Shown here one piece after another: positions 3,640 through 29,102 of a DNA stretch of 30,622 bases; position 1 is the first letter of the stretch, and every line of letters starts with the position of its first letter. The translations under genes were made by a program, and so were the position numbers. This stretch comes from Myxococcota bacterium (GTDB lineage Bacteria > Myxococcota_A > Polyangia > Polyangiales > Houyiibacteriaceae), in contig JBCDGX010000001.1 in NCBI GenBank assembly GCA_038750805.1, positions 1 to 30,622 on the forward strand, read 5' to 3'. The notes beneath the pieces are model-generated. The model was not told the origin of the DNA and did not search any database. It worked only from the letters and a program-made list of their open reading frames with translations.

Positions 3640-4976
3640 TGGGCGACGCGAGCGAACCGCCGGGCGCCCGGGACGACGACGCCTTCGTCGGCTTCTTCCG
3701 CCAGTCGGCGCCCTACATCCGCGCGCACGGCGGGCGGACCATGGTGATCGTCTTCGGTGGCGAGGCGCTCCTCTCCCAAGGCTTCCGGGAGCTCGTGCAC
3801 GACGTCGGGCTGCTTCACGCGCTCGGCGTGCGCCTCGTGCTCGTGGCCGGCTCGCGGCCGCAGATCGATCGACGCCTCCAGGCGCGCGACGTCGAGACGC
3901 GCATCGTCGAGGGCATCCGCGTGACCGATCGCCGGGCCCTCGAGGTGGCCAAGGAGGCCGCCGGGGCAAACCGCGTCGAGCTCGAGCGGCACCTCACGAC
4001 GGGGCTCCCGGGGACGCCCATGGCCGGCGCCCGGGTGCGCGTCGCGGCCGGGAACTTCGTCACGGCCCGGCCCTACGGCGTCGTGGACGGCGTGGACTAC
4101 GGCTACACGGGGCGCGTCCGGCGCATCGACGCGGAGGCCATCGAGGCCCGCCTCGACGCCGGCCAGATCGTGACGCTCACGCCCCTCGGCTATTCGATCA
4201 CCGGCGAGGCCTTCAACCTCTCGACGCCCGAGCTCGCGGCGGACACGGCCATCGCGCTCGGCGCCGAGAAGCTGATCTGCCTCGTCGAGGGGAAGGGCGT
4301 GGTCGACGCGAAGGGGCGCACGCCCTCGGAGCTCGACATCGGGGGCGTGGAGGCGCTCCTCGCGTCGAAGCGGCGCTTCGCCGTTGACGTGCGACAGCAC
4401 CTCGCGGCGGCGCTCGAGGCCGTGCGCGGCGGCGTCCCGCGGGCGCATCTCGTCCGGCGCAAGCATCCCGGGGCGCTTCTCCGCGAGCTCTACACGCGGG
4501 ACGGCATCGGCACGATGGTCGTGGCCGAGCGCACCGAGGACGTGCGCCCCGCGCGCCCCCGGGACGTGCCGAGCCTGCTGCAGCTCCTCGAGCCCATGGC
4601 CGAGCAGGGCCTGCTCGTGCACCGCCCGCGGGAGCTCCTCGAGACGGACATCGACCGCTTCGAGCTGAGCGAGCGCGACGGGCTCGTGGTCGCCTGCGCG
4701 GCGCTCTACGAGTACCCGGACGAGGCCATGGGGGAGCTCGCGTGCCTGGCCGTGCACGACGCCCATCGCCGGAGCGGGCGCGGCGAGGTGATGCTCGCGG
4801 CCATCGAGCGGCGCGCGCGGTCCCGCGGCCTCCGCACGCTCTTCGTGCTGACGACCCAGGGCACGCATTGGTTCATGGAGCGCGGCTTCGTGGCCGGCGC
4901 GCCGAAGGACCTCCCGGCGGGGCGCGGCGCCTACGACCGGAAGCGGGCGAGCAAGGTCCTGCTCAAGGCGCTCTGA
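3639..4976 (+). CDS. argA: N-acetylglutamate synthase (amino-acid kinase-like domain plus GNAT domain)
   Basis: FVGFFRQSAPYIRAHGGRTMVI, AEKLI, LLRELYTRDGIGT, ELACLAVH..HRRSGRG and LFVLTTQGTHWFMERGF. TGATG stop/start overlap with argE. Confidence 0.93.
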   Translation: MGDASEPPGARDDDAFVGFFRQSAPYIRAHGGRTMVIVFGGEALLSQGFRELVHDVGLLHALGVRLVLVAGSRPQIDRRLQARDVETRIVEGIRVTDRRALEVAKEAAGANRVELERHLTTGLPGTPMAGARVRVAAGNFVTARPYGVVDGVDYGYTGRVRRIDAEAIEARLDAGQIVTLTPLGYSITGEAFNLSTPELAADTAIALGAEKLICLVEGKGVVDAKGRTPSELDIGGVEALLASKRRFAVDVRQHLAAALEAVRGGVPRAHLVRRKHPGALLRELYTRDGIGTMVVAERTEDVRPARPRDVPSLLQLLEPMAEQGLLVHRPRELLETDIDRFELSERDGLVVACAALYEYPDEAMGELACLAVHDAHRRSGRGEVMLAAIERRARSRGLRTLFVLTTQGTHWFMERGFVAGAPKDLPAGRGAYDRKRASKVLLKAL

Positions 4977-25660: not shown

Positions 25661-26650
25661 CTACTCCGCCGCCTCCGCCTCGTCGTAGGCGTAGAACTGG
25701 CGGCACCACTTTCGGTAGGGGCCGATGGGGCCATCGCTCGCCGCGAGGAGCGGGCGCTCGAAGTAGGCCTTGTTCTCCCAGATGGCGAAGTCCTGCTCGA
25801 CGTCGTGGACGAAGCCCTCGAAGAACATCTTCTCGACCATCGCGCTCATGTTCGGGTCGGGCAGCGTCTTCATCATGCCGCCGCCGCGCAGGATCACGTG
25901 GTCCCGGTCGAGGGGCGTCGAGAGCACGTAGGTGCGGAACTCGGTGTTGAACTGCGGGACCGTCACCTCGACGACCGAGTAGCCGAGGCCGTGCACGCGC
26001 ACGCGGAAGATGCTCTCGACGGTCTGCCCGGGCATGCCCAGGTTCGCGAGGTCGCGCTTCATCGTGTAGCCGATGCGCAGCGTCGAACCCTCGACGTCGA
26101 GCGCGTCGATCACGTGCATGTCCGTGTAGCCATGCACGTGCTTGAAGTGCGCGAGGTCGACGCTGTTCTCGCTCGTCTCCTGCGGGTGCGCGGCGACGCG
26201 CTCCCAGACGTGCCAGCTCATGTCGGACCAGCCCTCGGTGCCGCGGAGCTCGAAATAGCTCATCGGCTCGAAGCTCGGCCCCTCGCCGCGCGCGCCGTTC
26301 CAGAGGAAGACGGCGCCATCGACCTCGCGGACGTCGAAGGCCTCGGCCTTCATGCCCGGTGGGATCTTCTCCACGTCGGGGATCTCGACGCAGGTCCCGT
26401 CGCCGGCGAAGCGGAAGGCATGGAAGGGGCAGCGGAGCGTGCCGCGGTCGACGCAGCCGCCCTTGCCGAGGTGCGCGCCCATGTGCGGGCAGTAGGCGCC
26501 GAGCACATGGGCCCGGCCGCCTTCGCCGCGGAAGAGGACCAGCTCGCGGCCAAAGGCCTGGCGCGTCAGGACGGCGTCGTCCGTCAGCTCGTGGGAGAGG
26601 GCGAGGGCGAACCAGCCGCTCGGATAACTCGGGAAGGGGTAGCGAGACAT
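25661..26650 (-). CDS. Rieske non-heme iron oxygenase, KshA/Neverland (sterol-modifying)-like
   Basis: PSGWF, Rieske motifs CPHMGAHL and CPFH, mononuclear Fe site ENSVDLAHFKHVH, and C-terminal QDFAIWENK..DGPIGPYRKWCRQFY. Confidence 0.87.
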   Translation of the reverse strand: MSRYPFPSYPSGWFALALSHELTDDAVLTRQAFGRELVLFRGEGGRAHVLGAYCPHMGAHLGKGGCVDRGTLRCPFHAFRFAGDGTCVEIPDVEKIPPGMKAEAFDVREVDGAVFLWNGARGEGPSFEPMSYFELRGTEGWSDMSWHVWERVAAHPQETSENSVDLAHFKHVHGYTDMHVIDALDVEGSTLRIGYTMKRDLANLGMPGQTVESIFRVRVHGLGYSVVEVTVPQFNTEFRTYVLSTPLDRDHVILRGGGMMKTLPDPNMSAMVEKMFFEGFVHDVEQDFAIWENKAYFERPLLAASDGPIGPYRKWCRQFYAYDEAEAAE

Positions 26651-26736
26651 GAAACGCGTTCCGTCCCGACAGGTGTCCCCGGCTAGGGGGGTCACGTCAA
26701 GCGACGCGTGCGCCGGCCGCGCGTACCCCTGGGCCT

Positions 26737-26988
26737 TCAGGCCTTGCTCTCGCCCTCGTGGCGGAGCACGGCCGCGAGCTTCTGCACCCGCGCCTCGTCG
26801 AGGCCCTCGTCCTTCCGGGCGAGGGAGCGCACCATCGCGCCGAAGCCGGCGCCGAAGCGCTCGCACTCGGGGCAGCCGGCGACGTGCGCCTCGACCCGCT
26901 CTCGCGTCGCGGCGTCGAGGTCGCCGTCGAGGTAGTCGCTGAGCACCGCGAGCACCATGTCGCAGCGGATCCCTCCGACCTCACGCAT
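26737..26988 (-). CDS. Soluble zinc-binding anti-sigma factor (zf-HC2/ZAS)
   Basis: C9-x25-H35-x3-C39-x2-C42 and LSDYLDGDL. No TM segment. Start overlaps the sigma stop by 8 nt. Confidence 0.9.
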   Translation of the reverse strand: MREVGGIRCDMVLAVLSDYLDGDLDAATRERVEAHVAGCPECERFGAGFGAMVRSLARKDEGLDEARVQKLAAVLRHEGESKA

Positions 26989-27559
26989 CGTCGTCCTCCT
27001 CCGCGCGTAGCGCTCCGGCCAGGCGTAGCCGGGCGCGATGGAGCCGGCTCTTCAGCGCCGGCAGCTCGAGGCCCAGCACCGCGGCGGCCTCCGGGCCCGC
27101 CAGGCCCTCGACGTCCCGCAGCATCAGCACCTCCCGGTCGGTCTCCGCGAGGGAGGCCAGGGCCCGCTCGAGCCGCGCCCGCACCTGGGCGCGCACAGCG
27201 AGCTTCTCGGGATCGGCGCCCCAGCCGGCGGCGAGGCCGAGGGGCAGGAGCGCGTCCTCGTCGGGCTCCTCATCGTGCGCGTGCCGGGCTTCCCGGCGCC
27301 GATGCCGAAGCGCCGCGTTCCGCACGACGGTGAAGAGCCAGGTACGAGCGCGGGCCTGACCGCGGAAGCTCGCGGCGCCGCGGTACGCCGCGACGAGCCC
27401 CTGCTGGAGCGCGTCGTCGGCCTCCCCGTTGCCGACGAGGCCCGCCGCGAAGCGCCGGAGCGATCCGCCGTGTCGCCGCACGAGCGCCTCGAAGGCATGG
27501 CAATCGCCTTCCCCGGCGCGGCGAAGGAGCGCCTCGTCGCTCGCGTGGTCGGTGCCCAC
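26981..27559 (-). CDS. ECF RNA polymerase sigma factor
   Basis: SDEALL...GD..AFEALVRRH, ADDALQQ, FRGQARARTWLFTVVRN, and region 4 L.ETDREVLMLRDVEGL...EAAAVLG....ALKSRLHRAR. TATCCT lies 7 nt upstream of GTG 27559. Confidence 0.92.
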   Translation of the reverse strand: MGTDHASDEALLRRAGEGDCHAFEALVRRHGGSLRRFAAGLVGNGEADDALQQGLVAAYRGAASFRGQARARTWLFTVVRNAALRHRRREARHAHDEEPDEDALLPLGLAAGWGADPEKLAVRAQVRARLERALASLAETDREVLMLRDVEGLAGPEAAAVLGLELPALKSRLHRARLRLAGALRAEEDDDA

Positions 27560-27578
27560 GGGCCGGAGGATAGGGCCG

Positions 27579-27794
27579 TCAGCGCCCGGTCGGGCACGTC
27601 GAGAGCCCGAGCATCCGGTAGATGGGGCAGCTGCCCGCGAGGCCGGTGACCAGCGGCACGAGGCCGACGAGGCCCCAGAGCGTCTTCGGGCCGATGAACA
27701 CGAGGGAGAGCAGGGCGATGCCGAGGGCGACGCGGATGCCGCGGTCGAGGTTCGACTCGTTGCGAGGAAGGAGCGCCTGAGCGAGGGAAGCCAT
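27579..27794 (-). CDS. DUF2892 (YgaP-like TM domain) small membrane protein
   Basis: NESNLDRGIRVALG...GLVPLVTGLAGSCPIYRMLGLSTCP. Strong SD AAAGGAG upstream of ATG 27794. Confidence 0.9.
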   Translation of the reverse strand: MASLAQALLPRNESNLDRGIRVALGIALLSLVFIGPKTLWGLVGLVPLVTGLAGSCPIYRMLGLSTCPTGR

Positions 27795-27837
27795 ATCGAA
27801 TCTCCTTTCGGGCGGCGTTCGGCCGCCTTCGAAGGGG

Positions 27838-27867
27838 TAGAGTCCGGCGGTCCCGAAAAGGATTCGG
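27838..27867 (-). promoter_or_regulatory. Candidate ECF promoter for DUF2892-sigma-anti-sigma: CCGAATCC-N16-ACTCTA
   Basis: GAATCC at 27865-27860 and ACTCTA at 27843-27838. Near-identical copy on the opposite strand. Confidence 0.7.
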
Positions 27868-27911
27868 GGCCGGCGTCGATTTCGCGAGGCGCGGGCACGA
27901 AGGCAGCGATC

Positions 27912-27930
27912 CGTGCGAAAAGATCGCACG
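27912..27930. promoter_or_regulatory. Perfect inverted repeat CGTGCGA-AAAGA-TCGCACG
   Basis: 7-bp arms ending 3 nt upstream of the plus-strand GAATCC element. Confidence 0.5.
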
Positions 27931-27931
27931 A

Positions 27932-27961
27932 CCGAATCCTTCGGAGGCCCCATGGTCTCTC
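27932..27961 (+). promoter_or_regulatory. Candidate ECF promoter for the lipoprotein gene: CCGAATCC-N16-TCTCTC
   Basis: GAATCC at 27934-27939 and TCTCT at 27956-27960. ATG 27970 follows 9 nt later. Confidence 0.7.
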
Positions 27962-27969
27962 ACGTGGCG

Positions 27970-28800
27970 ATGACCCTTCGACGCACCTTCCCGAGCCTCG
28001 CTCTCTTCCTGCTCGTCGCCGCCTGCGGGGACGCGGCCGTGGAACCGGACGGGGCGCCCATCGGCTTCGTGAACGTCCGCTTCGAGGAGATCGCCCCGAG
28101 CCGCGCGGTCTTCCGCTTCGACACGAGCCGACCGACGCAATGCGAGGCCCATTGGGGCTTCGCGCCGGACGATCGGCCTTTCGTCGCACTCGACCCGGAC
28201 ATGCTCGAGGACGAGTACGCCATCGACCACCAGATCCCGCTCGAGGATCTGCCGGCGGGCACGACCATCTACGTGCGCGCGCTGGCCGAGGACCCGAGCG
28301 GCTTCGTCGACGAGTCCGAGCTCTACTCCTTCACGACGCTCCCGGAGGAAGACCCGATGGACGGCGAGCGCATGGACAACGTGGCGCTCATGGACGCCGG
28401 CGCGCGCATCGTCGAGGTGTCGAGCAACTTCGGCGGCGCGGCGAACGACCAGACCTGGGGCATCGACAACGCCTTCGACGGCATGATGAGCACCGAGTGG
28501 TCGAGTTACTCGGACGGCGACGACGCCTTCGTGACCGTGGCCTTCGCCGGCGCCTACGAGATCCGCCGCTTCGGGTTCCGGAGCCGAAAGATGACCGATG
28601 GCACCTCCATCGTGCGGAGCGTGCGCCTCGTCTTCCCGGACGGGACGGTGATGGGCCCCTTCGAAACGCCCGATCCCGACGAGTACTACGAGTTCCCGAT
28701 CACGCCGACGACGACGGATCGGGTCACTCTCGAGGCCGTCGAGACGACGGGCGGGAACACGGGCGCGAAGGAGATCCGCTTCTTCGCCCTTCCCGAGTGA
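27970..28800 (+). CDS. Lipoprotein with FN3-like N-domain and discoidin/F5-8 type C-like C-domain
   Basis: Signal MTLRRTFPSLALFLLVAA-C. H...L.DL..GTTIYVRA.A.D (FN3-like). NVAL...GARIV.VSS...NAFDG..STEWSS...EI..FGFRSR (galactose-binding-like fold). Confidence 0.8.
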   Translation: MTLRRTFPSLALFLLVAACGDAAVEPDGAPIGFVNVRFEEIAPSRAVFRFDTSRPTQCEAHWGFAPDDRPFVALDPDMLEDEYAIDHQIPLEDLPAGTTIYVRALAEDPSGFVDESELYSFTTLPEEDPMDGERMDNVALMDAGARIVEVSSNFGGAANDQTWGIDNAFDGMMSTEWSSYSDGDDAFVTVAFAGAYEIRRFGFRSRKMTDGTSIVRSVRLVFPDGTVMGPFETPDPDEYYEFPITPTTTDRVTLEAVETTGGNTGAKEIRFFALPE

Positions 28801-28832
28801 GGCGCGCGGCCGGGGGCGGGTAGGCTCGCCCC

Positions 28833-29102
28833 ATGTGCCGGAACATCCGCCCGCTCTTCAACTTCGAGCCCCCGGCCACCGACGACGAGATCGAGGCGGC
28901 CGCGCTTCAGTTCGTGCGCAAGGTGAGCGGCGCCACGCGCCCCTCGCGCGCCAACGAGGAGGCCTTCGAGCGCGCGGTCCGCGAGATCGCCGCGAGCACC
29001 CGGACGCTCCTCGGCGAGCTCGTGACGAGCGCACCCCCGAAGGACCGGGAGGTCGAGGCCGAGAAGCGCCGCGAACGGAGCCGGCGCCGCTTCGGCCGCT
29101 AG
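28833..29102 (+). CDS. DUF2277 family protein
   Basis: MCRNIRPLFNFEPPATDDEI.AAALQFVRKVSG...PS.AN..AF matches the family signature. TAGGCT lies 6 nt upstream. Confidence 0.9.
   Translation: MCRNIRPLFNFEPPATDDEIEAAALQFVRKVSGATRPSRANEEAFERAVREIAASTRTLLGELVTSAPPKDREVEAEKRRERSRRRFGR

Follow-up and report, generated by a model that had tools for sequence, protein, structure and literature searches.

A Predicted Autoregulated ECF Sigma Factor Module with Two Outward-Facing Promoters and a DUF2892 Membrane Protein in an Uncultured Marine Myxobacterium

The Locus and Its Proposed Circuit

The subject of this work is a gene cluster of an uncultured marine myxobacterium, located in contig 1 of its draft assembly (5.99 Mb in 894 contigs, 72.6% GC, estimated completeness of 72%), of which a stretch of 30,622 nt was analysed as a whole (hereafter the window). 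In this cluster, an operon coding for a DUF2892 membrane protein, a sigma factor of the extracytoplasmic function (ECF) type and a small zinc-binding anti-sigma (ZAS) protein diverges from a lipoprotein gene, and the 175-nt gap between them holds two outward-facing copies of one bipartite motif. The cluster is probably a positively autoregulated ECF sigma module with two outward promoters, a reading held here with good confidence. It is carried by the uniqueness of the motif in the genome and by its conservation, with fixed spacing, in front of the same operon in other genomes.

In the proposed mechanism, the promoter GAATCC-N16-ACTCT (27865-27839, minus strand) would transcribe the DUF2892, sigma and ZAS genes as a tight unit, and the small cytoplasmic, RsrA-like ZAS protein, with its zinc and cysteines, would keep the sigma factor inactive. 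The sigma factor would be freed by the loss of zinc or by a signal that reacts with thiols in the cytoplasm, for which reactive sulfur, an oxidant or an electrophile are the likeliest candidates; it would then amplify its own operon and also fire the second promoter, leading to production of a surface lipoprotein with immunoglobulin (Ig)-like and CBM32 domains, probably from a leaderless mRNA. Basal sigma and anti-sigma may stem from a leaderless TATCCT-N7-GTG element inside the operon. The DUF2892 membrane protein would be the conserved output of the family, with the lipoprotein as an add-on in this genus plus one other genome, and exported rhodaneses as those of other lineages. The features of the locus are as follows.

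25661-26650, minus strand: KshA-like Rieske oxygenase gene, 86 nt after the ZAS gene on the same strand
26737-26988, minus strand: soluble ZAS (zf-HC2) anti-sigma factor, 83 aa (Pfam)
26981-27559, minus strand: ECF (group 4) sigma factor, 192 aa, GTG start (Pfam)
27568-27573, minus strand: candidate housekeeping-type -10 TATCCT, 7 nt before the sigma GTG (from the sequence)
27579-27794, minus strand: YgaP-like_TM/DUF2892, two-helix membrane protein, 71 aa, first gene of the operon (Pfam)
27839-27867, minus strand: predicted ECF-type promoter of the DUF2892 operon, -35 GAATCC at 27865-27860 and -10 ACTCT at 27843-27839
27912-27930, no strand: 7-bp perfect hairpin/palindrome CGTGCGA-N5-TCGCACG, directly 5' of the lipoprotein -35
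27932-27960, plus strand: predicted ECF-type promoter of the lipoprotein gene, -35 GAATCC at 27934-27939 and -10 TCTCT at 27956-27960
27970-28800, plus strand: lipoprotein, Ig-like plus CBM32/discoidin-like (lipobox LVAAC, AlphaFold model)

Two Copies of One Motif

The minus-strand copy (27867-27839) reads CCGAATCCTT-TTCGGGACCGCC-GG-ACTCT and the plus-strand copy (27932-27960) reads CCGAATCCTT-CGGAGGCCCCAT-GG-TCTCT, exactly as a preliminary description of this DNA had written them. Their joint pattern, CCGAATCCTT-N12-GGWCTCT, occurs twice genome-wide, both times in the 175-nt gap and facing outward. Exactly two occurrences each, again both at this locus, were likewise found in the entire assembly for the bare 10-mer CCGAATCCTT and for GAATCC-N16-WCTCT, the pattern that the same description had proposed for a genome scan. 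Moreover, when a weight matrix trained on 29 sites from other genomes only was used to score the 11.9 million positions of the host assembly, the DUF2892 promoter ranked first (32.2 bits) and the lipoprotein promoter second (24.2 bits). It is the genome-wide count together with the matrix ranks that places the twin motif far beyond chance, and not the shuffling of the window alone, a weak test in which at least two matches, with one mismatch allowed, were obtained in 17 of 100 shuffles. The third rank was taken by a GAATCA variant (20.5 bits; contig C46, ~3851, minus strand) lying 125 nt 5' of the gene for a signal-peptide protein of unknown family, which makes a weak candidate for a possible third target.

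Conservation of the Operon and Its Promoter

The trio formed by DUF2892, ECF sigma and small soluble ZAS genes is kept in about 100 loci. Both remaining genus members (G001 and G002; sigma identity of 77-79%) have it, and so do 29 of 31 loci collected from the order at 50-60% identity; sigma orthologues (E<=1e-30) are encoded by 87 of 401 genomes in this order. As the preliminary description expected of orthologous loci, the motif is present there: [GA]A[AG][TC]CC-N16-DCTC stands 52-104 nt before the DUF2892 start in each of the 30 order-level loci that have this gene, whereas by our own estimate from base composition it would turn up by chance at a rate of ~0.007 per locus in a 270-nt upstream stretch. 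The same 30 orthologues have GAATCC(TTTT)-N16-RCTCT upstream, and agreement extends to columns left free by the search pattern, with T after CC in 29/30, a T-run after that T, and G before RCTC in 25/30. The family consensus is TGAATCCTTTT-N10-G-R-CTCT. The consensus first put forward is better written as GAATCC-N16-DCTCY, the flanking CC and GG being preferences.

The comparison was extended across phyla with 80 loci from a profile search of species-representative genomes, belonging to Myxococcota, Acidobacteriota (Bryobacterales, Vicinamibacterales and Thermoanaerobaculia), Gemmatimonadota and Planctomycetota metagenome-assembled genomes (MAGs). DUF2892 lies directly upstream of the sigma gene in 62 of these loci and ZAS downstream in 79, and GAATCC(T) is near-universal upstream. 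The second box differs from clade to clade, reading GCTCTAT in Acidobacteriota (with a spacer 1 nt shorter), GCATCC in Myxococcaceae-like MAGs and GGATAGAG in others. Since the -10 and the spacer shift by clade together with the sigma factor, the motif would be the cognate promoter type of this sigma family. In addition, its presence at fixed spacing in 30/30 orthologues supports the autoregulation through the DUF2892 promoter that had been predicted from the host locus.

Relaxed pattern scans of five relatives gave counts close to those of a reversed-pattern control, and high matrix scores were confined to the DUF2892 sites. An Anaeromyxobacter-like genome (L050, G291:C1:271029-274055) has a 22.4-bit site 46-76 nt 5' of the gene for a ~265-aa protein unrelated to the operon, which is a possible extra target.

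The Sigma Factor and Its ZAS Partner

Pfam confirmed the three families (sigma, ZAS and DUF2892) that had been assigned to the operon beforehand. The sigma factor matches Sigma70_r2 (60 bits) and Sigma r4_2 (46.6 bits), and with 75.4 bits for TIGR02937 (sigma70-ECF; cut-off 42.9) the 192-aa protein belongs to the ECF superfamily; in keeping with this, it has an adjacent anti-sigma gene and, upstream, a bipartite promoter that it is predicted to recognise. No NCBIfam equivalog was reached, the best models (PRK11922, PRK12513 and SigM PRK09643) all being far under their cut-offs. Membership of the ECF12 group of SigR and SigH was considered and rejected, because Mycobacterium tuberculosis SigH (E 9e-13) is no closer to the protein than Escherichia coli RpoE (E 1.7e-19) and because the -10 is RCTCT. 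In the main text of the ECF classification paper, DUF2892 is not mentioned and no group with this context is described (PMC7826278).

The ATG of the ZAS gene overlaps the sigma stop by 8 nt. Its product matches zf-HC2 (PF13490) with 48.5 bits against a cut-off of 22.2, and the putative zinc ligands C9, H35, C39 and C42 do not vary among 98 unique orthologues, all of them 78-87 aa long and with no membrane segment. We take their spacing to be that of the RsrA zinc ligands C11, H37, C41 and C44. The only sequence match in the PDB is RslA (3HUG_B, E 4e-4), and the RsrA equivalog TIGR03988 (mycothiol-system anti-sigma-R) gave 34.9 bits, under its cut-off of 62.5. The family match and the four invariant ligands uphold the identification of the protein as a soluble ZAS anti-sigma factor, which is RsrA-like and predicted to bind the sigma factor.

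The Lipoprotein Gene as a Second Target

The lipoprotein begins with a signal peptide (MTLRR...LFLLVAAC-G) in which a lipobox is recognised by eye, and the lipobox cysteine is kept in its homologues of G002 and of G176, a genome from another genus. Its AlphaFold model (predicted local distance difference test, pLDDT, of 82.7) has an Ig-like beta-sandwich and, after it, a domain of the CBM32/discoidin type. Foldseek matched it with probability 1.0 to the Ig plus CBM32 part of a Micromonospora sialidase (E 2e-7), to other CBM32 modules, to neuropilin b1b2 and to the C domains of factors V and VIII. The discoidin character attributed to this protein is therefore present in the modelled fold, whereas the sequence matches fall just under the Pfam cut-offs (F5_F8_type_C, 25.6 bits vs 28.2; DUF7402, 24.1 vs 27).

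The promoter of this gene can be followed through the genus. G002 keeps the divergent layout, with a lipoprotein site GAACCC-N16-ACTCC (14.6 bits) that ends 6 nt before the ATG. In G001 a different gene is inserted between the operon and the lipoprotein gene, leaving the two copies ~2 kb apart, and although the operon is no longer adjacent the lipoprotein gene keeps GAATCC-N16-GCTCT 9 nt before its ATG (18.0 bits). In G176, a 51%-identical homologue has a 35.6-bit site ~50 nt before its start (L185, G176:C235:2296-4841; site at ~3796-3822 of the contig). A pattern scan of G176 gave 9 matches against 0 in controls, an excess probably due to the lower GC of this genome (~0.61), and only the lipoprotein site scores high. 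The motif was not found with lipoprotein homologues from a different family of the order. Its retention in 3/3 genus members and in G176, and its absence from that other family, point to the lipoprotein gene as a real, clade-restricted target, as had been predicted from the host sequence.

The same G176 site is an argument for a different view, according to which the promoter is a genuine ECF-type one that is read by a paralogous sigma factor, the operon being a target and not self-activating. In this genome the best sigma factor is only 36% identical and DUF2892 was not found, and dozens of ECF sigma factors per genome (76 first-look candidates in the host itself) would offer readers enough. 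The orphan promoter could, nevertheless, result from an assembly gap or a mis-binned contig as well as from a second sigma factor reading the motif, and G176 is a MAG of 450 contigs whose operon may simply be unassembled. Moreover, the motif travels with the sigma operon in ~100 loci and four phyla, its -10 and spacer co-vary with the sigma factor by clade, and self-activation is the usual layout of ECF systems. We thus regard a paralogous reader as improbable and retain the family's own sigma factor as the likely one.

Transcription Starts and Accessory Elements

The lipoprotein ATG comes 9 nt after the -10, and at this gene and several family targets the start codons are found 6-9 nt past the CTC(T/C) box. 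So short a distance confines the start of transcription to this stretch, as a -10 would, and suggests that these mRNAs are leaderless or nearly so, which is probably the case of the lipoprotein mRNA. The DUF2892 mRNA is expected to start at ~27831-27834, which would give it a leader of ~38 nt with AGGAG.

Symmetrical elements also occur around the -35 boxes. At the DUF2892 promoter, a 13-nt imperfect inverted repeat (CGGCGGTCCCGAA / TTCGGGGCCGGCG, window 27845-27875) is centred on the -35, and family sites tend toward CCC-GAATCCTTTT-GGG in this region. At the lipoprotein promoter, hairpins abut the -35 in 3/3 genus members, with arm sequences that differ (those of G001 and G002 were identified by eye). 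The palindromes CGTTGA-GAAAG-TCAACG of G002 and TGCG-GAAAGG-CGCA of G001 occupy the same place as the hairpin of the window, and the three loops are all G/A-rich (AAAGA, GAAAG and GAAAGG). This hairpin may serve as an operator or have a structural role.

Such symmetry, seen in the inverted orientation of the two copies, in the palindromes around the -35s (CCCGAA-TCCTT-TTCGGG and the 13-nt repeat at the DUF2892 box) and in the hairpin next to the lipoprotein box, would also fit operator half-sites, that is, an inverted repeat of CCGAATCCTT with its halves 64 bp apart bound by a conventional DNA-binding regulator. This alternative is very improbable, given that most orthologous loci hold one copy, always directed toward DUF2892, and that in G001 the copies are ~2 kb from each other. 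The bipartite shape of the sites, with a 16-nt spacer and a distance to the start codon that are both fixed in orthologues, speaks for promoters, as does the position of the second box 6-9 nt ahead of the start codon at several targets, which is that of a -10.

A promoter of another kind may lie inside the operon. The 19-nt gap between the DUF2892 and sigma genes contains TATCCT followed by N7 and GTG, and across the three genus members this position reads TATCCT, TATCGT or TACCGT, always with exactly N7 before the GTG, in a gap that has otherwise diverged. Genome-wide, open reading frames of 120 codons or more whose ATG or GTG is preceded by TAnnnT number 343 at N6 and 250 at N7, against ~50 at other spacings, so that several hundred genes of the host (roughly 500) carry this signature and are probably leaderless. 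Conservation in the genus and the genome-wide signature together make the internal promoter plausible, and we incline, with some reserve, to consider it real in this genus. A consensus sigma-70 scan of 26600-28900 returned no -35/-10 pair, a result that has no bearing on leaderless promoters consisting of a -10 only. In distant orthologues the sigma gene overlaps the end of DUF2892, which means that the element, put forward in the preliminary description as a source of basal transcription, is kept in the genus but is not a family trait.

The suggestion that the Rieske oxygenase gene belongs to the regulon was not borne out. As a conserved operon member it was rejected, since none of the orthologous loci has it downstream of ZAS. 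The open reading frame that follows ZAS in G001 and G002 begins with a different, unrelated protein sequence. In the host itself, read-through across the 86-nt gap may reach this gene.

DUF2892, Rhodaneses and the Nature of the Signal

The DUF2892 protein matches PF11127 over residues 11-69 with 72.3 bits (cut-off 25.3), and its gene is the sole copy in the assembly. All 87 orthologues have C56 of the CPxY motif, and 80% have C67.

Extra targets of the family were defined as sites of at least 17 bits near the sigma gene. Several of them precede genes for exported rhodaneses. In L024 and L026 a signal-peptide rhodanese (L026:1353-1877(+)) has its own promoter, divergent from that of DUF2892; in L047 (= L087) the ATG of a lipoprotein tandem rhodanese (L047:183-1148(-)) comes 7 nt past the promoter; in L129 one promoter is followed by DUF2892 and then by a lipoprotein tandem rhodanese (L129:1608-2447(+)); and in L097 a borderline rhodanese lipoprotein (L097:1049-1519(-)) has its GTG 6 nt past the promoter. 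Rhodanese-like genes are a minority, being found in 8 of 111 loci from ~6 distinct genomes; the cases are nevertheless spread over separate lineages, and in four independent ones a copy of the promoter precedes the rhodanese. Other promoter-bearing neighbours encode a cytochrome P460 (L139:3444-3905(+)), an efflux adaptor lipoprotein of the resistance-nodulation-division (RND)/HlyD type (L086:2554-3150(+)) and a second YgaP-like protein (L134).

Rhodanese and DUF2892 are already joined in E. coli YgaP, a rhodanese fused to a DUF2892 membrane domain and encoded beside ygaV (PMC4730233). YgaV is reported to be a sulfide-responsive regulator of the SqrR/BigR type (PMC9774250), and in Azospira the transcript of a DUF2892 gene rose ~10-fold during H2S oxidation and ranked with the most abundant ones (PMC5358917). 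The rhodanese targets, the YgaP fusion and this published link between DUF2892/YgaP and sulfide favour a reactive-sulfur or thiol signal, and reactive sulfur or thiol stress is our best guess. The thiol or persulfide signal proposed in the preliminary description gains support in this way.

A broader and more tentative idea, possible rather than probable in our judgement, is that of a widespread reactive-sulfur stress regulon (sulfide, persulfide, thiosulfate or cyanide). Its ZAS switch would control a "split YgaP", made up of DUF2892 and, in many lineages, an exported rhodanese, as a membrane route for sulfur transfer or export, with the CBM32 lipoprotein recruited to the response at the level of the genus. 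If true, the split-YgaP regulon would provide the first testable function for DUF2892.

DUF2892 might instead be a third regulatory part, sensing through its cysteine at the membrane and tethering or modifying the ZAS-sigma pair, in which case the signal would come from the membrane or envelope. It is the first and almost always linked gene (62/80 loci), and the invariant CPxY cysteine would face the cytoplasm if the topology of E. coli YgaP is assumed. We consider this role unlikely, since L120-L146 lack DUF2892, since in L142 the gene is divergent and has its own promoter copy, as a target would, and since the same promoter drives rhodaneses, the partners fused to the DUF2892 domain in YgaP. 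A complex prediction for ZAS and DUF2892 (score of 0.00, low pLDDT in both chains) was not used as evidence either way. DUF2892 is thus best seen as an output of the autoregulated module.

Certain points weigh against this view of the locus as a whole. The lipoprotein site of G002 is weak, with GAACCC in place of GAATCC; G176 has the lipoprotein site and neither DUF2892 nor a sigma orthologue was found in it; and no connection between the lipoprotein and sulfur chemistry is apparent. The redox switch is drawn by analogy only, because the sigma factor resembles SigR/SigH no more closely than RpoE and the anti-sigma falls under the RsrA cut-off, and not every ZAS protein senses redox. Finally, the regulon was described as self-contained, and it does look small, although this impression comes from an assembly that is 72% complete.

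Significance and Comparison with Known Systems

The mechanism itself is unsurprising, as an ECF sigma factor held by a ZAS protein is a textbook design. The locus is one instance of a broader uncharacterised theme. Although the ECF/ZAS design is already known, the sigma family and its likely sulfur targets are not described in the searchable literature, in which neither the GAATCC motif nor rhodaneses led to an account of such a family and no link between DUF2892 and ECF sigma factors was found. The statement of the preliminary description that this combination had not been reported holds to that extent. The family occurs in at least four phyla, and its promoter can be read from the sequence, which makes the regulon predictable in any member genome. 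Its constant target, DUF2892, is a very common membrane domain of unknown function and its recurrent add-ons are rhodaneses, so that the function of DUF2892 becomes a testable question on sulfur transfer at the membrane. In addition, the locus pairs predicted ECF-type and housekeeping-type leaderless promoters side by side.

The closest parallel in design is the thiol-oxidative switch of the ECF12 group, SigR-RsrA of Streptomyces coelicolor and SigH-RshA of mycobacteria and corynebacteria, and the module would work in a similar way. There too a small soluble ZAS gene comes just after, and overlaps, the ECF sigma gene; the promoter is self-activating (as predicted here), its -35 box being GAAT and its -10 lying ~18 nt away; and a second, sigma-independent promoter, known in that system and proposed in ours, provides basal transcription. 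The differences lie in the -10, which is RCTCT here and GTT in the SigR promoter (GGAAT-N18-GTT), in an operon that opens with a DUF2892 membrane protein, in a host from Myxococcota, a group not known to contain mycothiol, and in a regulon that seems tiny beside that of SigR, with its dozens of genes for thioredoxin and thiol repair. A similar HxxxCxxC zinc-binding anti-sigma holds the sigma factor in the ECF11 pair RpoE-ChrR of Rhodobacter sphaeroides and in the membrane ZAS pair SigL-RslA. The protein studied here has neither a cupin sensor domain nor a membrane anchor, and its sigma factor matches R. sphaeroides RpoE weakly (E 1e-6).

With regard to its output, the module resembles E. coli ygaVP, with which it shares the PF11127 membrane domain. 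The family promoter would drive DUF2892 and, in several lineages, rhodaneses, which amounts to having the two halves of YgaP as separate genes subject to a single regulator that would sense thiols. Control is by a sigma/anti-sigma pair here and by an ArsR-type repressor in E. coli, DUF2892 is a stand-alone protein, and the extra target in the window is a CBM32 lipoprotein and not a rhodanese. Moreover, whereas the rhodanese of YgaP is cytoplasmic, those of this family carry a signal peptide or lipobox.

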